This document shows, piece by piece, positions 2,675-11,635 of a stretch of 64,000 bases of DNA. Source of the DNA: Clostridia bacterium (lineage in GTDB: Bacteria; Bacillota; Clostridia; Oscillospirales; CAG-272); assembly GCA_017452895.1 (NCBI GenBank), contig JAFTLE010000001.1:17428-81427 (forward strand). The letters are read 5' to 3'. Below the pieces are notes generated by a model, which made no database searches, was not told the DNA's origin, and saw only the letters and a program-made list of their open reading frames with translations. The position numbers and the translations under genes were made by a program. How positions within the stretch are numbered: position 1 is the stretch's first letter; each line of letters opens with the position of its first letter.

Positions 2675-2881
2675 TTATTTTAAGGGACAGACCTTGTCGT
2701 AAGCGGGATTGCAGGCGTAGAAATTTTTGGAGTTCAGCTTGTCGGTCGTCATACGCAACGCCTCGCCGAAGCGTTGGTAGTGTACGACCTCGCGCTGGCG
2801 CAGAAACTTCAGCACGTCACGCACGTCGGGGTCGTCAACGAGGCGCAAAAGGTTGTCGTAGGTCGTGCGCGCCTTTTGCTC
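2675..2881 (-). pseudogene. cotJC: cotJC 3' segment (C-terminal 68 codons of the split spore coat Mn-catalase-family gene)
   Basis: Translation EQKARTTYDNLLRLVDDPDVRDVLKFLRQREVVHYQRFGEAL.. aligns with B. subtilis CotJC ..EEKARATYQWLIDISDDPDLNDSLRFLREREIVH... There is no RBS or native start; the track ORF begins at an in-frame GTG inside element DNA. Confidence 0.85.
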
Positions 2882-2915
2882 TGTTACTATCACGTATTCG
2901 CAACAAAATTGAGTC

Positions 2916-2956
2916 TTGCAAAAGTGCGAAAATCCTTATTTACAAGGCGTTTTGCA
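2916..2956 (+). repeat. Left copy of a ~42-bp imperfect direct repeat found inside both element ends
   Basis: ttgcaaaagtgcgaaaatccttatttacaaggcgttttgca versus 10510..10551 ttgccaaagtgtaaaaatccttattgcacaagaggtttcgca. About 34 of 42 aligned columns are identical by hand count, in the same orientation. Confidence 0.6.
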
Positions 2957-3080
2957 GTTCATACCGAGAAAAAATTTCGGGTACAAGGCGCACCGCAGAA
3001 AGTAAGACGAAGGCGTAGTAATCTACGTCGAGCCGCTTTCAAGGAGCAACGCCGTAAACGAAAGAATTTTCGACGGTATG

Positions 3081-4640
3081 TCAGAAATTCCAATGAATTT
3101 CGATGGGCACGTTTCGCGTCCCCGGAATGCGCTTTCCGACCATGATTTTGTCGATCAAAATTTCTACCATTTCCCGTGTCAAATGCTCTACCTTGACGTA
3201 TTTTTCGATCAGCTCACGGCGGTTGTCTCCCACGGCAATTTTGACGTCGATCTCGGCCATTTGCCTTTGGCATTCGAGCACCTGCGCTTCAAGGCGTTCC
3301 TTTTGCGCGGTGAAGTCCTTCGACAATTCAATGAAATCCGCTTCGCAAATCAGCCCCTTGACCTTGTCAAGATAGAGGTCGCGCACACCCTTGGAAAATT
3401 GATTGATCTTGCCTTGATAGGTGGCAATTTCGGCTTCAATTTCTTGCTTTTGCGCCAAGAGATCGGTGTTAAATTGCACTTTGCGCTCCAGCTCATCCAT
3501 ATCAAGATACTCGGCATTGAGTCGCCTCAGCTCTGCAATGACCATCCATTTAAGCCTATCCACCGAGATAAACGCACCCTCGCAGGCTCCCTTGGCGTAG
3601 TGTCGGCTGGGGCACCCGAGAAAGTGTCTGCCGCCCGATTTTGACGAGCGCATGACGTATCCGCAGGACGCGCACCGTACCTTCTTGGCAAATAGCCCGA
3701 TGGTACCGACCTTAAGCGGCTTGGCTCGCTCGGCAATCATCTTCTGCACTCTGTCCCACAAAGCGCGGTCAATAATCGGCTCATGGGTGCCCTCTACCCG
3801 AAACCATTGTTCTTGGGGTCGTGGGCGGTTGATACCGCTCTTGTACGAGATGCTTCCATACTTGCCTTGCACCAGATTGCCGATATAGGTCTCGTTTTTC
3901 AGCATATCCGAGATTGCAAAGTACTTCCACAGCGTGCTATTCTTGCTTGGTGGCAGACTAAAGCGTAGCCCCTGCATCCGCTTGTACTCGGTGGGATTGG
4001 GGATTCCTCGGTCGTTGAGCATTCGTGCGATTGCCGTCTTGCCGTAGCCCTGCGAAAAGAGGGTAAATACCTCTCGCACCACGGCAGCGGCTTCCTCGTC
4101 AATGATCAAGTGACCTTTGAGGTCGGGATCCTTCTTGTAGCCGTACAGCGCAAACGAGCCGATATGAAAGCCGTTTTTGCGGCGGCTGTCAAGGGCGGAT
4201 TTGATGCTGTCAGACATATCCTCCAGATACCACTCGTTGACAAGTCCATTGATCTGACGGCTTTTTTTGTTGCCCTTGTTGGCGGTATCGGCGTTGTCCA
4301 CAATGCTGACAAAGCGAATGCCCCAGATGGGAAACAGACCGTGTATGTATCGCTCTACCAATTCAAGCTCACGGGTGAAACGCGATTGCGTTTTACACAA
4401 AATAATATCAAATTTTCTCGCCTGCGCGTCGGCAAGCAGGCGTTTGAACTCGGGGCGATTGCGGTCCGAGCCCGCGTAATCGTCGTCGCTGTAAATGCCG
4501 TAAAGCTCCCAGCCCATGCGTTCGGCGTAGTCGCGGAGCATCGCCTTTTGATTCTGAATACTGCCCGAATCGTCTGTTGCGTTCTGCTTGTTTTTGTCCT
4601 CCTCGGACAGTCTGCAATAGATTGCTGCTTTGTCTCTCAT
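3081..4640 (-). CDS. Large serine recombinase (resolvase/invertase N-domain + recombinase/zinc-ribbon + DUF4368-like coiled-coil C-terminus)
   Basis: Trimmed to MRDKAAIYCRLSEEDK.. (the catalytic-Ser motif YxRxS of serine recombinases). It has ..CKTQSRFTR.., a CxxC..C..C zinc ribbon (CASCGYVM..GCPSRH..C) and a tail ..IPIEIHWNF typical of DUF4368 recombinases. A GAGG RBS lies upstream of this ATG. Confidence 0.9.
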   Translation of the reverse strand: MRDKAAIYCRLSEEDKNKQNATDDSGSIQNQKAMLRDYAERMGWELYGIYSDDDYAGSDRNRPEFKRLLADAQARKFDIILCKTQSRFTRELELVERYIHGLFPIWGIRFVSIVDNADTANKGNKKSRQINGLVNEWYLEDMSDSIKSALDSRRKNGFHIGSFALYGYKKDPDLKGHLIIDEEAAAVVREVFTLFSQGYGKTAIARMLNDRGIPNPTEYKRMQGLRFSLPPSKNSTLWKYFAISDMLKNETYIGNLVQGKYGSISYKSGINRPRPQEQWFRVEGTHEPIIDRALWDRVQKMIAERAKPLKVGTIGLFAKKVRCASCGYVMRSSKSGGRHFLGCPSRHYAKGACEGAFISVDRLKWMVIAELRRLNAEYLDMDELERKVQFNTDLLAQKQEIEAEIATYQGKINQFSKGVRDLYLDKVKGLICEADFIELSKDFTAQKERLEAQVLECQRQMAEIDVKIAVGDNRRELIEKYVKVEHLTREMVEILIDKIMVGKRIPGTRNVPIEIHWNF

Positions 4641-4659
4641 ACACGGCCGCCTCTGTTTT

Positions 4660-4821
4660 TCATTGACCCGAAGAAAGATTTGCACTTTTTCTGCGTTCCA
4701 ACGCGGTGATCAATTCTATCCATATATGTGTGTAATCCTCCTTCGTCAAAGCTCCGTTTTTGAAAACACCGGTACAGCCTTCTTCTTTTCTATCATTGTT
4801 CTCGCCTTTTTCTTTCGCCAT
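4660..4821 (-). CDS. Small hypothetical protein (53 aa) directly upstream of the recombinase; candidate accessory/directionality factor
   Basis: Hand-translated: MAKEKGENNDRKEEGCTGVFKNGALTKEDYTHIWIELITALERRKSANLSSGQ*. An AGGTAGGA RBS lies 5 nt upstream. The stop is 19 nt before the recombinase ATG. The ORF is below the ORF-track size cutoff. Confidence 0.4.
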   Translation of the reverse strand: MAKEKGENNDRKEEGCTGVFKNGALTKEDYTHIWIELITALERRKSANLSSGQ

Positions 4822-4848
4822 AGCATTCCTACCTTCGTTTTTGAAATA

Positions 4849-4878
4849 ATTATATGAAAATCATCAAGTCCGTTATGA
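4849..4878 (-). promoter_or_regulatory. Candidate sigma-E-like (mother-cell) promoter for the small ORF-recombinase operon
   Basis: Minus strand reads TCATAAC-N15-CATATAAT, versus the recalled sigma-E consensus ZHATAXX-N14-CATACAHT (6/7 and 7/8 matches). Confidence 0.35.
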
Positions 4879-4940
4879 GCTTTTTGCTCCTTCACCTATA
4901 AATACGCTCGGGGGCTGCAAAATTTTGATTTTTTAAACAT

Positions 4941-4990
4941 TATAAAAACGCACTCTGTCGGCGGTGAAATTCCGCTTTCAAAGTGCGTTT
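4941..4990 (-). terminator. Rho-independent terminator after the FAD/Rieske oxidoreductase gene
   Basis: Minus strand: aaacgcact..(inner gcgg/ccgc hairpin)..agtgcgttttta. Confidence 0.55.
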
Positions 4991-4995
4991 GGGGC

Positions 4996-6294
4996 TTACA
5001 TCTTCTTGTCATCGGTGGCGGGGTTGTTGATGAGCTTGCCCTCTTCGGTGAAGCGCGAGCCGTGACAGGGGCAATCCCAAGTGTGCTCGGCATTGTTGTA
5101 TTTGAGGGCACAGCCGAGATGAGGGCAACGGGGCGCGGTGGGGGTGAGAATCCCTACTACCGAGTCAAAGGCGTTGACGGCAAGCTGTGGGCGCAAAACG
5201 GTGCGCGAAGGATCGAAAACGGCGGCGTAGAGGTTTGACTTGCCTTGCACAAGGTCGCAGAGAATGTCGGCGGAGACCATGGCGTTGGTCATACCCCATT
5301 TGTTAAAGCCGGTTGCCACGAACACATTAGAAGTGGATTTTGCGTACTGCCCGATATAGGGAATATCGTCGAGCGTCATACAGTCCTGCGTTGCCCATTT
5401 GCCCACGATCTCGGCGTTTTTGTAGTGCTTATGGGCGAAGTCTTCAAGCTCCTGCCAACAGCCGCCCCTCTTACCCGTGCGGTGTCCGCCGCCGCCGAGG
5501 AGCAGAAGATCGCCGTAGCTTCGGAAGGATAGCCCCGTGTCCGATTCATCCACATACATTCCGTTCACGTTCTGTGCACCTTTCAATGCTATGACATAGG
5601 AACGGTGCTGATAAAGTTTGAGAAAGTACAAGCCGTGCTTGTTCAGCATTGGAAAATGGGTGGCAATAATCAGCTTTTTGAAGGTGATCTCTCCGTGATT
5701 TGTTTTTGCCTTGTGCGGCATCAGCTCGACGACCTTTGTATGCTCATAAATGGGTAAATCTTTGGCGATCGCATATAGGAACTTCAACGGATGAAGCTGT
5801 GCTTGATCCTCGATACACACCGCGCCTGCGACCGGAAAGGTCAGCTCATGAGCGTCCGAAAAATCAGCTTTCACGCCGATTCGATTCAGTGCGGCAACCT
5901 CTTTTTCAATCTTCTTACGATCACTGAGAGAATAGACGTAGTTATCCCGCATTTCATAGTCGCAATCTATATCCCTGCAAAGTCGGGCGTATTCCTTGCC
6001 CGCTTTTTTCTGCGCCTCCGCGTAAAGCCGCGCCTTGTCCTCGCCGAAGCGTTTTATCATCTTATCGTAAATCAATCCGTGCCCGAGCGTAATCTTTGCC
6101 GTGGTGTTTTTCGTAATGCCGGCGCAGATCTCGTCTGCCTCCACCAACATACAATCCACACCGGCGTTTTTCAGCTTATAAGCGCATAAAATCCCCGCAA
6201 TCCCGCCGCCGACAATCAAAATATCGGTCTTTTTATTCCTACCAAGCGCATCAAAATGCGGCTTATCCGCCGTTTTTAACCATATTGAGTCCAT
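4996..6294 (-). CDS. FAD-dependent oxidoreductase with C-terminal Rieske [2Fe-2S] domain
   Basis: Trimmed to MDSIWLK.. (GGAGG RBS). It has the dinucleotide-binding motif DILIVGGGIAGILCA and the Rieske motif CPHLGC..(17)..CPCHGS at the C-terminus. Confidence 0.8.
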   Translation of the reverse strand: MDSIWLKTADKPHFDALGRNKKTDILIVGGGIAGILCAYKLKNAGVDCMLVEADEICAGITKNTTAKITLGHGLIYDKMIKRFGEDKARLYAEAQKKAGKEYARLCRDIDCDYEMRDNYVYSLSDRKKIEKEVAALNRIGVKADFSDAHELTFPVAGAVCIEDQAQLHPLKFLYAIAKDLPIYEHTKVVELMPHKAKTNHGEITFKKLIIATHFPMLNKHGLYFLKLYQHRSYVIALKGAQNVNGMYVDESDTGLSFRSYGDLLLLGGGGHRTGKRGGCWQELEDFAHKHYKNAEIVGKWATQDCMTLDDIPYIGQYAKSTSNVFVATGFNKWGMTNAMVSADILCDLVQGKSNLYAAVFDPSRTVLRPQLAVNAFDSVVGILTPTAPRCPHLGCALKYNNAEHTWDCPCHGSRFTEEGKLINNPATDDKKM

Positions 6295-6472
6295 ATTTGT
6301 CCTCCAAATCTTAATAGGATTAGTTTTTGCGGATTCACACCTAAACATACCGTTTATTAAAAAAATCGGCTGGTATTTTAATTCGTCGTTTCATATAATT
6401 TTATACCTTCGGCAATATATTTTCCCTCATCTTGGGAAACAATAACGGTGAATACAAAAATCGGAGGTATCT

Positions 6473-7135
6473 ATGTTCAAACACGAAAAAATGCTATTTC
6501 ATCCCGTAGAGGTCGAAAGAGCAAATCCGCAGTATGCCGTTTTGCTTCAGGAGCAGCTTGGCGGCGGGAACGGCGAGCTCAAGGCGGCAATGCAGTATAT
6601 GTCGCAGAGCTTCCGCATTAAAGATCCCGAAATAAAGGATTTGTTCCTCGATATAGCTGCCGAGGAGCTGGGGCATATGGAAATGGTGGCACAGACCATC
6701 AACCTGCTCAACGGTCACGATGTCGATGCAACCAAGGTACAGGCGGGCGAGGTGCAGACCCACGTGCTGCTTGGTCTGAATCCCGGACTGATCAATTCCT
6801 CTGGGTACTCTTGGACGGCGGATTACGTGACCGTCACGGGTGACCTGTGTGCCGATCTGCTCTCCAATATCGCGTCCGAGCAGAGAGCCAAGGTGGTTTA
6901 CGAATATCTCTACCGTCAGATTGAGGACAAGAAGGTCAGAGAGACCATTGATTTTCTTCTCAACCGTGAGGAAGCGCACAATCAGATGTTCCGTGACGCC
7001 TTCAACAAGGTGCAGGAAACGGGATCAAACCGTGATTTCGGTACGACCAAGGCAGCAAAGATGTATTTTTCCTTGTCAAATCCCGGACCGAATACGTTTG
7101 CAACGGGCGAGACACATGCACCGTCCTTTAAGTAA
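6473..7135 (+). CDS. Manganese catalase family protein (complete, 220 aa)
   Basis: ..GGGNGELKAAMQYMSQ.., ..AAEELGHMEMV.., ..NIASEQRAKVVYEYL.., ..REEAHNQMF.. are the four-helix di-Mn ligand motifs. A GGAGG RBS is present. Confidence 0.85.
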   Translation: MFKHEKMLFHPVEVERANPQYAVLLQEQLGGGNGELKAAMQYMSQSFRIKDPEIKDLFLDIAAEELGHMEMVAQTINLLNGHDVDATKVQAGEVQTHVLLGLNPGLINSSGYSWTADYVTVTGDLCADLLSNIASEQRAKVVYEYLYRQIEDKKVRETIDFLLNREEAHNQMFRDAFNKVQETGSNRDFGTTKAAKMYFSLSNPGPNTFATGETHAPSFK

Positions 7136-7142
7136 GCTTGAG

Positions 7143-7175
7143 AAAAATCACCGTCAATTATTTGGCGGTGATTTT
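7143..7175 (+). terminator. Rho-independent terminator after the Mn catalase gene
   Basis: aaatcaccg-N12-cggtgatttt. Confidence 0.55.
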
Positions 7176-7229
7176 ACATATTGCTGCTTGGGTATTCTTT
7201 GAATGAAAAATTAAAGTAACGAGGTATTT

Positions 7230-8180
7230 ATGTGTACAGCTGTTTCCTATAGAAGTAACGCTTTCTATTTCGGCAGAAATTTGGATTTGGATCGCGGATA
7301 CGGGGGAGGTGTCGTTATTACTCCGCGCCGTTATGAATTTAAAATGCGTTGTGAGAAGCCGATCGGGTCGCACTATGCGATGATCGGTATGGCTACCGTT
7401 GTTGATGATTTTCCTCTGTACTATGAGGCTACGAACGAGTGGGGACTTAGTATGGCTGGCTTGAACTTTCCCGAAAACGCCGTATACTGCGACTTTACGG
7501 AGGGGAAAGACAACATTACGCCTTTTGAGTTGATTCCTTGGATCTTATCTCAATGCGCTTACATCGATGAAGCAAAATCACTTCTTGGAAAAATCAATTT
7601 GATCAATATCAACTTTAGTGAGCAGCTTCCGCTGTCGCCGTTGCATTGGATGCTCAGCGATAAAAAACGAAGTATCGTATTAGAACCTTTGAGTGACGGG
7701 CTTAAAATATACGACGATCCGTTTGAGGTTTTGACCAACAATCCTCCATTTGAATTTCATAAAACGAACGCGAGCCATTATATGGGACTTGGCATCGGTC
7801 ACGCAACCTCTCAATTCAGAGAAAGTATACCTATGAAAAATTATAGTTTGGGCATGGGGGCTTTGGGCTTGCCGGGGGACTTTTCAAGCGCGTCACGTTT
7901 TGTACGGGCGCTTTTTGTGAAAGAAAACTCGGTATCGGAGCATAATGAAGCATCAAACGTGAATCAGTTTTTCCATATTCTGAATTCTGTTGCCATGCCG
8001 AAGGGGTGCGTCTTAGCTACTGATGGCTTTGAATATACGCGCTACAGCAGCTGCTGCAACGCGGACAGGGGGATTTATTATTACACGACCTATAATAACC
8101 TTCACATAACCGCGGTAAATATGCACGATGTTGACCTTGATAAATCATCCTTATACACCTACGGTGTCAAAGGATTATAA
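7230..8180 (+). CDS. Choloylglycine hydrolase family (bile salt hydrolase / linear amide C-N hydrolase)
   Basis: N-terminal MCTAV.. (Cys2 Ntn nucleophile), ..FGRNLD.., ..LTNNPPF.., ..GLPGDFSSASRF.., ..FHILNSVAMPKG... It is colinear with the recalled C. perfringens CBAH. Confidence 0.85.
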   Translation: MCTAVSYRSNAFYFGRNLDLDRGYGGGVVITPRRYEFKMRCEKPIGSHYAMIGMATVVDDFPLYYEATNEWGLSMAGLNFPENAVYCDFTEGKDNITPFELIPWILSQCAYIDEAKSLLGKINLININFSEQLPLSPLHWMLSDKKRSIVLEPLSDGLKIYDDPFEVLTNNPPFEFHKTNASHYMGLGIGHATSQFRESIPMKNYSLGMGALGLPGDFSSASRFVRALFVKENSVSEHNEASNVNQFFHILNSVAMPKGCVLATDGFEYTRYSSCCNADRGIYYYTTYNNLHITAVNMHDVDLDKSSLYTYGVKGL

Positions 8181-8201
8181 TAACTTCGTAAAAAACAAGT
8201 A

Positions 8202-8230
8202 TTGACAGAAAGCGAAAAATATGGTACAAT
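8202..8230 (+). promoter_or_regulatory. Sigma-A-type promoter for ktrB-ktrA
   Basis: TTGACA-N17-TACAAT. Confidence 0.5.
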
Positions 8231-8310
8231 TATAGAAGCAAATAATGATAAAAAGGAACCAGCTGACTGCAGAGGACGTTGATTCCTTTATGCTTTTTAG
8301 AGGAAAACTT

Positions 8311-9672
8311 ATGGTTAGGAAAAAGAAATTTACACTCTCAACCACGCAGATCATATTGCTCAGCTTTCTTGTGACTATTCTCTTGGGAAGCGTGCTGTTA
8401 GCATTGCCGATCAGTTCCGCCGACGGTGGAGCTGTGCCGTATCTCGATGCGCTGTTTACAGCAACTACCTCCACCTGCGTGACAGGACTTGTTACGCTTC
8501 CCACTGTCTCTGCTTGGAGCGTGTTCGGGCAGATCGTCATTCTATTATTGATACAGATCGGCGGTCTTGGTATCATCACCATTATGTCGGGGCTGATGCT
8601 TCTTTTGAACAGGAAAATGGGCATCGGCGACCGATTGCTCATTCAGGACGCTTTCAATCTAAATACGATGTCGGGACTTGCAAAATTCGTTAAAAACGTA
8701 TTGTTCGGCACGATGATTATCGAAGGAATTGGTGCTGTCCTGTATATGTTTGTGTTTGTTCCCGAATTTGGCGCGAAGGGCATCTGGATATCGGTATTCA
8801 ATTCGGTTTCCGCTTTCTGTAATGCCGGCATTGATATTATTGCGGAAAACAGCCTTTGCAATTACGCAACAAATTCATTGATAAACATCGTCACCTCGGC
8901 GCTCATCGTTCTCGGCGGTCTTGGTTATATCGTATGGTGGGATGTAATTCGTGTTGTTAAAAGCAGATCGTCAAGGAACAGAAAAATATTCAGGCATTTA
9001 ACCTTGCACTCGAAGATTGCAATTACTGTTACCGTAGGACTTATTCTTTTCGGTGCGATTCTGATATTTATTTTTGAATATTCTAATCCGTTGACCATTG
9101 GAGAGATGTCCTTGCTCGATAAGATCCAAGTATCTCTCTTCCAATCGGTCACCACGAGAACCGCAGGCTTTGCAACCGTTCCGCAAGAAAATATGACGAA
9201 CGCCTCTGCCGCCGTATCTGTTATTTTAATGCTGATAGGCGGTTCACCTGTGGGAACGGCAGGCGGTATGAAAACAGTTACGATTGCCGTCCTTGTTTGC
9301 TCTGCATTCGCTACGATAAAGAATAAGAACGGTGCTACACTATTCGGTCGCCGTATCTCTGAAGAATCAATAAAAAAGGCGGTTGCGGTTGTTGTAATGT
9401 TCCTTGCGATTTGCGCTACGTCTACCTTACTCTTGATGGCAACGAGTGACGTATCTGCCATCGATGCGGTATATGAAACGGTCAGCGCAACGGCAACCGT
9501 AGGTCTTTCGAGAAACCTAACCGCAACGCTTAACACATTTGGAAAGTTAATTATCATCGTAACGATGTATTTCGGCAGAGTAGGCCCCATTTCGCTTGCG
9601 GTGGCACTTGGCAGTAAGAACGAAAGTCAGAACGTAATTTCCGAGCCGACGGAAGATATCAGTATAGGATAA
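8311..9672 (+). CDS. ktrB: TrkH/KtrB family potassium uptake membrane subunit
   Basis: Trimmed to MVRKKKFTLSTTQ.. (GAGGAAA RBS). It is polytopic, with repeated ..T.TGL../..TAGF../..GGSPVGTAGGMK.. selectivity-filter-like motifs. Confidence 0.85.
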   Translation: MVRKKKFTLSTTQIILLSFLVTILLGSVLLALPISSADGGAVPYLDALFTATTSTCVTGLVTLPTVSAWSVFGQIVILLLIQIGGLGIITIMSGLMLLLNRKMGIGDRLLIQDAFNLNTMSGLAKFVKNVLFGTMIIEGIGAVLYMFVFVPEFGAKGIWISVFNSVSAFCNAGIDIIAENSLCNYATNSLINIVTSALIVLGGLGYIVWWDVIRVVKSRSSRNRKIFRHLTLHSKIAITVTVGLILFGAILIFIFEYSNPLTIGEMSLLDKIQVSLFQSVTTRTAGFATVPQENMTNASAAVSVILMLIGGSPVGTAGGMKTVTIAVLVCSAFATIKNKNGATLFGRRISEESIKKAVAVVVMFLAICATSTLLLMATSDVSAIDAVYETVSATATVGLSRNLTATLNTFGKLIIIVTMYFGRVGPISLAVALGSKNESQNVISEPTEDISIG

Positions 9673-9683
9673 GGAGAAGAACA

Positions 9684-10334
9684 ATGAAATCAAAGAAAAC
9701 ATATGCAGTCTTTGGACTTGGAAGGTACGGCATAGCCGTGGCAAAAGAGCTTGTAGAGTGTGGTATGGAGGTTATTGCCGTGGATACCGAACAAAGAATC
9801 GTTAACGATGCGTCGGCGTATCTACCCGTGTGCAAATGCGCCGACGTTACCGATGCGGAGGTTATCTCCCGTCTTGGCATCGGAAATATTGATACGGTCA
9901 TAGTATGTATGGCAAGTAATTTGGAAGCGAGCGTTATGGCGGTCGCACTTTGCAAAGAGGCGGGAGTTAAGACCGTTATCGCAAAATGTGCCAACGAGAT
10001 GCATCAAAAGATACTGTTTCGTGTCGGTGCGGATCAAGTCGTATTTCCCGAAAACGAATCCGGCATCCGTCTTGCCAAAAACCTCTTAAGCTCCGGCTTT
10101 ATTGATATGATCTCTCTGTCGAAGGATGTATCAATGGTCGAGATCGACGTAAAGGACGAGTGGTGCGGCCAAAACTTGATCGAATTGAATCTTCGCAAAA
10201 AATACGGCTTCAATATCGTCGCTATCAAGAAAGGCGAGAATGTCAACATAAACATTAATCCTGAGCAAGTGCTTGATGCCCAAACCACGCTGATCGTTAT
10301 TGCCAATACGGCAAAGCTTGGTAGGTTAAAATAA
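9684..10334 (+). CDS. ktrA: TrkA/KtrA family K+ uptake regulatory subunit (RCK: TrkA-N + TrkA-C)
   Basis: 216 aa. It has the Rossmann motif AVFGLGRYG and a size typical of KtrA. It follows ktrB by 11 nt. Confidence 0.85.
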   Translation: MKSKKTYAVFGLGRYGIAVAKELVECGMEVIAVDTEQRIVNDASAYLPVCKCADVTDAEVISRLGIGNIDTVIVCMASNLEASVMAVALCKEAGVKTVIAKCANEMHQKILFRVGADQVVFPENESGIRLAKNLLSSGFIDMISLSKDVSMVEIDVKDEWCGQNLIELNLRKKYGFNIVAIKKGENVNININPEQVLDAQTTLIVIANTAKLGRLK

Positions 10335-10348
10335 TTCCATATAAAAAC

Positions 10349-10386
10349 GCCGTCGAGGGAGTGAAAAACCTTGACGGCATTTTTTG
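10349..10386 (+). terminator. Rho-independent terminator after ktrA
   Basis: gccgtcgagg-N10-ccttgacggc followed by attttttg. Confidence 0.7.
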
Positions 10387-10509
10387 ATGACGGAAAAATT
10401 CATTGAGAAAACAGCTTGTCCTTATCATTTTTAATAAATTAAGTTGATTTTTTGCTAAAATGTTTGTTGTTGCTCTTATGTGATAGCAGGTATGCAAATT
10501 TTAAGCGTA

Positions 10510-10551
10510 TTGCCAAAGTGTAAAAATCCTTATTGCACAAGAGGTTTCGCA
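10510..10551 (+). repeat. Right copy of the ~42-bp imperfect direct repeat inside the element ends
   Basis: See 2916..2956. This copy ends ~39 nt from the right junction, and the left copy starts ~34 nt from the left junction. Confidence 0.6.
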
Positions 10552-10557
10552 ATATTT

Positions 10558-10995
10558 TTATAAAGATTGCTCTTGCGTGGTTGCATCATCGGCGGCGAGG
10601 TCCTCGTTTAGGTCGGTGATTGGATCGCCCTTGACGGCGATCGAGGCGGTCGTGAACGGGAAGCCTGCGGCGGCGGTGGGATAAATGCCCGTGGTGTGAT
10701 CGGTGAAGTAGGCGTCGAAGCCGCCCTCCCTGATCTGCTCGGGTGTCAGATCGCGCGTAAGCTGATAAAGAATCGCGGCGATCAGCTCCTGATGCGCCAT
10801 CTCCTCGGTACCGATATCGGTCAGCATGCCGATGACCTTGCCGTCGGGCATCGAATAGCGCTGATTGAGATAGCGCGTCGATGCGCCCAGGTCGCCGTCG
10901 GGGCCGCCGAGCTGGGACACGATGATCTTCGCATACGCGGCGTTCGGGGTCGCGATCTTAACGGGGTATTGCAGTTTTTTCTCATAGATCCACAT
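10558..10995 (-). pseudogene. cotJC: cotJC 5' segment (135 native codons, 10591..10995, then 10 element-encoded codons and a stop)
   Basis: MWIYEKKLQYPVKI..LGGPDGDLGAS.RYLNQRY..LTDIGTEEMAHQE..GDPITDLNEDLAA matches CotJC (B. subtilis MWVYEKKLQYPVKV..YGGADGELAAALRYLNQRY..LTDIGTEEFAHLE..GDPIADLYEDIAA). Similarity stops after LAA; the tail is DDATTQEQSL*. Confidence 0.9.
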
Positions 10996-11527: not shown

Positions 11528-11570
11528 TATCATATGTCGGGCTTTTATGCCTGTGAATATCCGCCAAAAA
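11528..11570 (-). promoter_or_regulatory. Candidate mother-cell (sigma-E/K family) promoter of cotJABC
   Basis: Minus strand reads ..ATATTCAC-aggcataaaagcccga-CATATGATA. The -10 fits CATAnnnTA, with AC 16 nt upstream. Confidence 0.3.
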
Positions 11571-11635
11571 TGGCGCGCTTTCCTAAAAAGACACCGCTTT
11601 TTCCAAGCCCTGCCGCGCCAACCGTATTTTGTGGG

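Follow-up and report, generated by a model that had tools for sequence, protein, structure and literature searches.

Organization of the interrupted cotJC locus

The window (the whole 64,000-nucleotide stretch of Clostridia DNA analyzed here, with positions counted from its first letter) carries a cotJA-cotJB-cotJC operon in which cotJA and cotJB lie upstream of a cotJC gene that is split in two by about 7.7 kb of DNA (2882-10588). The features of the locus are listed below; scores and ranks of the half-sites refer to the profile described later, and omega values are relative to the uninterrupted locus L231.

2675-2879, minus strand: cotJC 3′ part, from the rest of codon 136 to the stop codon; its first 25 nt are the attB right arm (omega 0.02)
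2880-2881, minus strand: GA copy 2, where the element meets the cotJC 3′ half; the Glu136 codon begins with it
2882-2906, minus strand: P arm, the recombinase-proximal attP half-site, TTGTTGCGAATACGTGATAGTAACA (8.5 bits, rank 4)
3081-4640, minus strand: large serine recombinase, 519 aa from the ATG at 4640 (534 aa from an upstream GTG at 4685), with Resolvase, Recombinase, Zn_ribbon_recom and DUF4368 domains
4660-4821, minus strand: conserved 53-aa ORF that immediately precedes the recombinase gene (tblastn matches in ~26 family loci, all of them in this position)
4849-4876, minus strand: conserved promoter-like motif ATAACGGACTTGATGATTTTCATATAAT (ATA-N17-CATATAAT, sigma-E type), upstream of the small ORF and the recombinase gene
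4996-10334, no single strand: cargo region, in which domain annotation found no phage or conjugation genes and no transposase
4996-6348, minus strand: FAD oxidoreductase/Rieske protein
6473-7135, plus strand: Mn catalase paralogue, 220 aa
7230-8180, plus strand: choloylglycine (bile-salt) hydrolase, BSH
8222-8246, minus strand: lone arm-like half-site between the BSH and trkH genes (15.1 bits, no dyad partner)
8245-9672, plus strand: TrkH
9684-10334, plus strand: TrkA
10467-10491, plus strand: lone arm-like half-site ~97 bp inside the right end, containing the second TTGCTCT (18.0 bits, no dyad partner)
10564-10588, minus strand: P′ arm, the recombinase-distal attP half-site, TGATGCAACCACGCAAGAGCAATCT (18.6 bits, rank 1), which mirrors the P arm at 14 of 25 positions
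10589-10590, minus strand: GA copy 1, at the junction of the cotJC 5′ half with the element; the blastn alignment to the empty site L231 ends at 10589
10591-10995, minus strand: cotJC 5′ part, codons 1-135; its last 25 nt are the attB left arm (omega 0.07)

A sequence-only reading of this DNA had invoked a large serine recombinase, and the product of 3081-4640 indeed has the full resolvase (PF00239, 1.6e-22), recombinase (PF07508, 5e-26) and zinc-ribbon (PF13408, 3.8e-8) domain set together with DUF4368 (PF14287, 3e-9), as well as the serine motif AIYCRLSEED in its N-terminal translation. Its best match among solved structures is the N-terminal domain of TnpX (E = 4e-15, over that domain only), and the TP901-1 and SPbeta integrase structures were also matched. 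Homologues of 517-541 aa number in the thousands; the best 120 are 73-95% identical to the window enzyme, and nearly all of these have DUF4368. The small ORF upstream is 44-54 aa long in the different loci and has the motif C.SVFK.G..T.K..[FY]T..WIELIN.LE.K; a search for a Pfam family in it found none, and it is a candidate accessory or directionality factor.

The promoter-like motif is also a property of the family, since ATA-N16-18-CATAnnnT is present upstream of the recombinase gene in 102 of 116 family loci, against an expectation of 0.047 per locus. Clostridial sigma-E promoters are reported to have ATA at -35 and a mother-cell -10 such as CATATTAT or CATATAAT, with a spacing of 16-18 bp (PMC3789822). 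The window's own cotJA promoter, which served as a calibration, resembles it at the -10 (CATATGAT) but lacks ATA at the 16-18-nt spacing. Within the spacer of the recombinase motif is a conserved box, GTACAAGC, GAACAAGC or GGACTTGC, which we take to resemble a SpoIIID site; a literature search for a SpoIIID box like GGACAAG found no source.

The junctions and the empty site

Read on the minus strand, the upstream junction is ..GACCTCGCCGCC-GA-TGATGCAACCACGCAAGAGCAATCT.. (GA at plus-strand 10590/10589; with a shorter element side, GACCTCGCCGCC-GA-TGATGCAACC..) and the downstream junction is ..TTGTTGCGAATACGTGATAGTAACA-GA-GCAAAAGGCGCGC.. (GA at 2881/2880; with a shorter element side, ..GTGATAGTAACA-GA-GCAAAAGGCGCGC), so that the junction coordinates and GA positions of the sequence-only reading are borne out. 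This GA is the sole in-register identity between the two junctions, which have C and A, respectively, at position -1 and T and G at position +1. Joining 10995..10591 to 2881..2675 in silico creates a 612-nt in-frame ORF of 203 aa that contains ..EDLAAEQKAR.., matches Pfam Mn_catalase at 1e-50 and is 98% identical to the intact CotJC P0121. The attB predicted to be left by excision is GACCTCGCCGCCGAGCAAAAGGCGCGC, and the attP predicted at the circle junction is GTGATAGTAACAGATGATGCAACCACG.

The predicted attB can be compared with natural genes. All 73 intact cotJC genes from other Clostridia genomes encode ..ED[LM]AAEQKAR.. with no insertion or deletion; in them the invariant Glu136 codon begins with GA, and the neighboring bases are variable third codon positions. 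A syntenic sister genome, which encodes P0121 at loci L231/L232 and whose nucleotide sequence is 88-93% identical to the window over >12 kb, has a natural empty site that reads GACCTCGCCGCA-GA-GCAAAAGGCGCGT and equals the reconstructed attB. The alignment of the window to this site stops at 10589 and resumes at 2883, with GA alone duplicated and nothing lost. The attB prediction is thus supported both by the indel-free genes and by the empty site, and the further statement that exchange at GA yields the canonical ..LAAEQKAR.. without inserted residues agrees with the 203-aa ORF and with the same site. TTGCTCT, which occurs twice near the right end (10569-10575 and 10471-10477), had been named as another place where the exchange might have occurred; the empty site excludes it.

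The two halves of cotJC differ in their divergence from the intact L231 gene (dS of 0.71 for the 3′ half and 0.19 for the 5′ half), and the flanking regions do likewise (88% and 93% identity, respectively); this contrast may mean that a recombination boundary coincides with the point of insertion.

Two natural unintegrated attP sites were also found. The first is on L216, a 107-kb phage contig (endolysin, NrdD, phage PHROGs/phage-only families), where 11565-11616, directly after the recombinase gene, reads AAGTTGTTCTTATAAGATTGCAGCA-GA-TGGTACGACCGTATAAGAACAACAT and has 19 of 25 mirrored matches; the second, at 2292-2343 of L133, reads ATGTTGTCTTTATACAATCGCACCC-TC-TGGGGCGACTTCGTAAGAACAACAT and has 17 of 25. 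The attP reconstructed from the window, with GA at the dyad center, therefore has natural counterparts in which GA likewise centers a 17-19/25 inverted repeat.

Symmetry of the attachment sites

The arms of the window attP are complementary at 14 of 25 mirrored positions and at nine of the inner 13, and those of attB at six of 25, all six lying in the inner 18; computation thereby reproduced exactly the counts made by hand in the sequence-only reading (14/25 and 9 of the inner 13 for attP, about 6 of 18 for attB). The comparison with shuffled controls that it had proposed was made as well, at a center of symmetry that had been set beforehand by the CotJC reading frame: in 100,000 arm shuffles p was 0.00125 for at least 14/25 and 0.00127 for at least 9/13 (about 0.0013-0.0015 overall), and the symmetry thus exceeds that of shuffled arms. 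Only 0.18% of all positions in the 64-kb window reach 14/25 (mean 6.3, sd 2.3), and when centers from -15 to +15 were scanned the GA center was the single maximum (14; next best, 10). The dyad symmetry of attP is not due to chance.

Such symmetry recurs in four independent attP sequences. Among complete integrated elements of the family, the attP of L162 has 14 of 25 matches (computed; its inner 8/8 are perfect) and that of L147 ~17 of 25 (hand count), and the corresponding attB sites score 5-6 of 25 (5/25 for L162). The sites have the features of serine integrase att systems: attB differs from attP and is less symmetric, attP is ~50 bp long with imperfect inverted repeats around a central dinucleotide, and a 2-bp core is common to attP, attB and both junctions with no need for longer identity.

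A half-site profile was built from the other loci only, leaving out the window's own arms, and ~128,000 window positions were ranked with it. The P′ arm came first and the P arm fourth, and the score of the latter (8.5 bits) is well below those of most family arms (20-38 bits). In L161, where the host context is different, the same P arm adjoins a recombinase with 95% identity.

The two lone arm-like half-sites (15-18 bits) bracket the trkH/trkA module and are flanked by the dinucleotides AT and TA rather than GA. We considered whether they delimit a nested integrated element and rejected this, because neither has a dyad partner, the dinucleotides next to them are not the same (AT versus TA) and they form no clean att pair. 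L092 also has lone arm-like half-sites (8209-8233 and 8261-8285), and the related L162 is without the trkH/trkA module, its BSH gene adjoining the P′ arm. The half-sites around trkH/trkA suggest a composite element built by past recombination.

A family of recombinases that almost exclusively targets one cotJC codon

The ~125 related loci come from metagenomes, from IMG/VR and from one assembly of a cultured Subdoligranulum variabile. In these loci the recombinase stop codon is closely followed by a conserved 25-nt arm, of which an alignment-free tally counted 119. GA (TC when read on the opposite strand) adjoins 117 of the 119, and 111 of the 117 are junctions with cotJC, broken at Glu136. 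Twelve apparent non-GA junctions in a tblastn-based tally proved to be coordinate offsets of gapped or short alignments and were resolved by the alignment-free one. The host flanks at the cotJC junctions are diverse (42 + 39 distinct sequences, ~80 in all), which argues for many independent integrations.

The same junctions delimit the exchange. On the element side position -1 is A in 34 of 35 cases while the host has A, C, G or T there, and at position +1 the host has G or A while the element has T in 44 of 76; because next to GA the element keeps one base where the hosts vary, and vice versa, exchange appears confined to GA. In hosts with GCA as the Ala135 codon, CAGA is shared and a cut offset by one base would be compatible; in the window, where only GA is shared, such an offset is excluded. 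About five junctions lie in genes other than canonical cotJC (L203, L129, L131, L112 and L090), all with a GA core. The secondary target of L203 (11617-11700), for example, is in a gene for a Glu/Pro-rich protein ending ..PEEWAA-E, and the GCAGCA-GA inner motif is kept.

The family elements occur in two configurations. In one, which the window also has, the recombinase gene shares its strand with cotJC and points to the 3′ half; in the other it lies on the opposite strand and points to the 5′ half. The core of the natural attP, relative to the recombinase gene, is GA in L216 and TC in L133, and these match the two insertion orientations. Integrated orientation therefore seems to follow the orientation of the 2-bp core, and the earlier proposal that a non-palindromic dinucleotide sets polarity fits both orientations in which the family is found in cotJC.

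Two observations concern mobility. In L161 the recombinase is 95% identical to that of the window and the adjacent cotJC fragment only 73% identical, from which it follows that the element moved between hosts. Close sub-lineage members (L164, 1-9400, and L162, 6661-9534) have quite different cargo, for instance genes for a GH32 fructan hydrolase with ABC transporter, LacI and PfkB proteins, or DUF6933/PRiA4 and ATPase_2/DUF234 genes; since cargo differs so much within a close sub-lineage, the recombinase and its att sites look like a portable cassette.

Free forms were also sought in databases. IMG/VR contains 23 exact matches to the family attP core TTGCAGCAGATGCTGCAA, which we attribute to chance, as none has a nearby recombinase or arm-like flanks, and GenBank phage records contain no relative of the recombinase above 45% identity. 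A circular 23.9-kb "plasmid 18" of Subdoligranulum variabile (L233, OY725852.1; recombinase 67% identical) was considered as an excised circle and rejected: it carries the recombinase gene and then arm-GA-cotJC 3′ half, and is thus an integrated copy. It looks like a mis-assigned piece of chromosome with a wrong replicon assignment, and the record identifies a cultured strain that carries a member of the family.

Integration and possible excision

The above observations make it very probable that 2882-10588 is a 7.7-kb integrative element that was inserted into cotJC at GA by its own large serine recombinase. Large serine recombinases make 2-bp staggered double-strand cleavages at the core of their sites through a phosphoserine intermediate. 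By this established chemistry, integration would have joined, by conservative exchange, an attP of ~52 bp with dyad symmetry (P arm, GA, P′ arm) to an asymmetric attB in the ..Ala-Ala-Glu-Gln-Lys.. codons: recombinase dimers would occupy both arms of attP and both of the dissimilar arms of attB, open the two sites at GA with a stagger of 2 bp, and rejoin the ends after rotation. The exchange of GA would leave one copy at each junction, and its non-palindromic nature would fix the orientation of the element. The reverse reaction would release a circle and restore the intact 203-aa cotJC.

Does excision still occur? The split cotJC differs from its intact orthologue by 37 synonymous and six non-synonymous changes (omega 0.04, a value to be read with the caveat that much of the synonymous divergence could predate the insertion), and both halves are free of stops and frameshifts; by this measure both are under purifying selection. 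The omega of the recombinase is 0.04-0.08. Because of the purifying selection on the cotJC halves and the recombinase, the movement of the element between hosts, and the conserved small ORF with its sigma-E-type motif, we infer that excision may well continue and that the mother cell of sporulating bacteria is its most likely setting, as with skin, SPbeta, vfbin and gin; we give this reading an even chance.

An alternative that retains considerable weight, though we think it rather less probable, is that excision at GA is sporadic or induced, as for an ordinary mobile element or prophage remnant, and that cotJC was chosen only for its conserved DNA. A near-invariant coding motif would be an ideal target for a broad host range, the relatives of the element include a 107-kb phage with a free attP, rare secondary targets are used (L203, L129, L131), and DUF4368-clade enzymes such as TndX are described, in the title of a paper by Wang & Mullany (2000) that PMC4430133 cites, as sufficient for both integration and excision. 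Against this, the sigma-E-type ATA-N17-CATATAAT motif stands upstream of the small ORF and the recombinase gene (PMC3789822) in the great majority of loci (102/116, above), and the target belongs to a mother-cell spore-coat operon, which is the logic of skin, SPbeta and gin (PMC4191935, PMC5595907, PMC5025042). Sporadic and sporulation-linked excision are not exclusive, since SPbeta does both.

It is unlikely, in our estimation, that GA marks a historical crossover only and that this copy is now a fixed, immobile island, with cotJC permanently inactive and other catalases, including the element's own, compensating for it. The weak P arm (8.5 bits against the family profile), the lack of phage or transfer genes, the relic half-sites that point to past rearrangement inside the element, and a Mn-catalase paralogue as cargo that might make loss of cotJC tolerable would all fit such an island. 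However, the recombinase ORF is full length with four domains and low omega (0.04-0.08), the cotJC halves are without stops or frameshifts, 98% identical to the intact orthologue and likewise of low omega (0.04), the same weak P arm accompanies the 95% identical recombinase of L161 and so appears to be a functional arm of the sub-lineage, and the catalase of the element is only 30% identical to CotJC. Finally, it is highly improbable that the exchange took place elsewhere, for example in the TTGCTCT repeat (present twice near the right end), or that GA is the 2-bp target-site duplication of a transposase (some DDE transposases also make two-base duplications) and the attP symmetry an accident, given that the empty site shows GA alone duplicated with nothing lost, that the second TTGCTCT sits in a lone relic half-site inside the element, that the element encodes no transposase, and that the symmetry has p ~0.0015 at a pre-fixed center and recurs in four independent attP sequences.

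Comparison with known systems

The mechanism of integration by the element's own recombinase at GA is the ordinary, well-known one of large serine recombinases, here extended to a new target, family and habitat. Its closest described parallels are TndX and TnpX. TndX, of Tn5397 in Clostridioides difficile, is reported to make 2-bp staggered cuts at GA, so that GA is found at each element end and once in the circle joint (PMC3672683, PMC4430133). The window element uses the same GA crossover dinucleotide, and like TndX and TnpX (Tn4451/Tn4453) its enzyme is a large serine recombinase with a C-terminal DUF4368, encoded at the element end by a gene that reads toward the att site. TnpX is linked to a GA dinucleotide; a literature search for TnpX together with that dinucleotide gave no match. 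The differences are substantial. The window recombinase is only ~30% identical to annotated TndX. TndX, TnpX and the DUF4368 clade are multi-targeting and transposon-like (PMC10083194, PMC4430133), and DUF4368 is regarded as a hallmark of the multi-targeting clade that is found in only 0.73% of site-specific large serine recombinases (PMC10083194), whereas the window family has 111 of 117 GA junctions in one cotJC codon and does not show relaxed multi-target behavior. Moreover, the TndX and TnpX elements are conjugative or mobilizable transposons, and the window family travels on phages and small cargo islands.

The second set of parallels is the class of elements that interrupt sporulation genes. 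In skin (SpoIVCA, B. subtilis) and skinCd (CD1231 and CD1234, C. difficile) sigma-E/SpoIIID govern excision by way of the recombinase or of a small directionality factor (PMC5025042). There, as in the window, a mother-cell sporulation gene is split by an element that is prophage-derived or free of phage genes, and large serine recombinases remove skin and skinCd. In the window a sigma-E-type motif and a small ORF precede the recombinase gene. The target differs, being sigK for skin and cotJC here, as do the grounds for regulation, which in the window are sequence motifs only, and the window small ORF is without detected similarity to any family. SPbeta (SprA and SprB, in spsM) and gin (GirC and GirX, in gerE) have an attP with an inverted repeat around a central dinucleotide and an attB in a coding region (PMC5499854, PMC5595907). 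The phage-free window element resembles gin as a non-viral element in a sporulation gene, and its family resembles SPbeta in including active-looking phages (L216) together with reduced derivatives. It differs from gin in sharing a bare 2 bp instead of 9 bp, and from both in its DUF4368-branch recombinase and in its hosts, which are gut Oscillospiraceae-type Clostridia and not Bacillus. cotJ-type operons are expressed in the mother cell in C. difficile (PMC3789822). As in skin, SPbeta, vfbin, vrin and gin, the coding region of a mother-cell sporulation gene is interrupted, and precise excision, carried out in silico, restores the intact 203-aa ORF; on every feature that can be judged from nucleotide sequence, the element matches the skin, SPbeta and gin class.

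cotJC has already been listed as a recurrent integration target (Abe et al. 2013, as relayed in bioRxiv 10.1101/2021.11.22.469490), and from what is relayed there the att sites, core dinucleotide and family size appear not to have been described in that listing. A search of the literature found no paper that joins cotJC with a description of serine recombinase att sites; in the literature searched, the att sites, the core and the family are undescribed.

The family-level picture is of more interest than the single element, in its abundance, its strict targeting by a DUF4368 enzyme, its phage and cargo-island carriers, its sporulation-type promoter and its core flip. We offer it tentatively, at slightly less than an even chance, as a very large undescribed DUF4368 family that integrates near-strictly at one cotJC codon; that is carried by ~100-kb phages and by small phage-free islands (BSH, Trk, sugar utilization) in gut Oscillospiraceae-type spore formers; that has a sigma-E/SpoIIID-type promoter and a 45-54-aa partner; that would be excised from the mother cell at every sporulation; and in which a natural flip of the core inverts prophage orientation. 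By this picture a spore-coat gene may house phages or cargo islands (with a bile-salt hydrolase in the window) in many gut spore-formers, and if the promoter is what it seems, these elements would be removed from the mother cell at each sporulation and kept in the spore. In addition, the data define, at the sequence level, the attP and attB sites and the core dinucleotide of an abundant group of large serine recombinases that is new. They also offer a naturally occurring DUF4368-type enzyme that is site-specific, a natural case of orientation set solely by a 2-bp core, and ~80 natural attB variants with two natural attP sites, which is the type of information used for integrase genome-engineering tools.

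The cargo of the element

L162 has the same BSH, Mn-catalase and oxidoreductase cargo as the window element, so that a trio of Mn catalase (4072-4734 in L162), bile-salt hydrolase and FAD/Rieske oxidoreductase is conserved, and an element that splits one Mn-catalase gene carries another. We considered the carried catalase as an orthologous replacement for CotJC and rejected it on its low (30%) identity. In this gut spore-former a bile-salt hydrolase gene is thus cargo of a mobile element. Some Clostridia germinate in response to bile acids, and the combination of BSH cargo with insertion into a spore gene may be more than coincidence.
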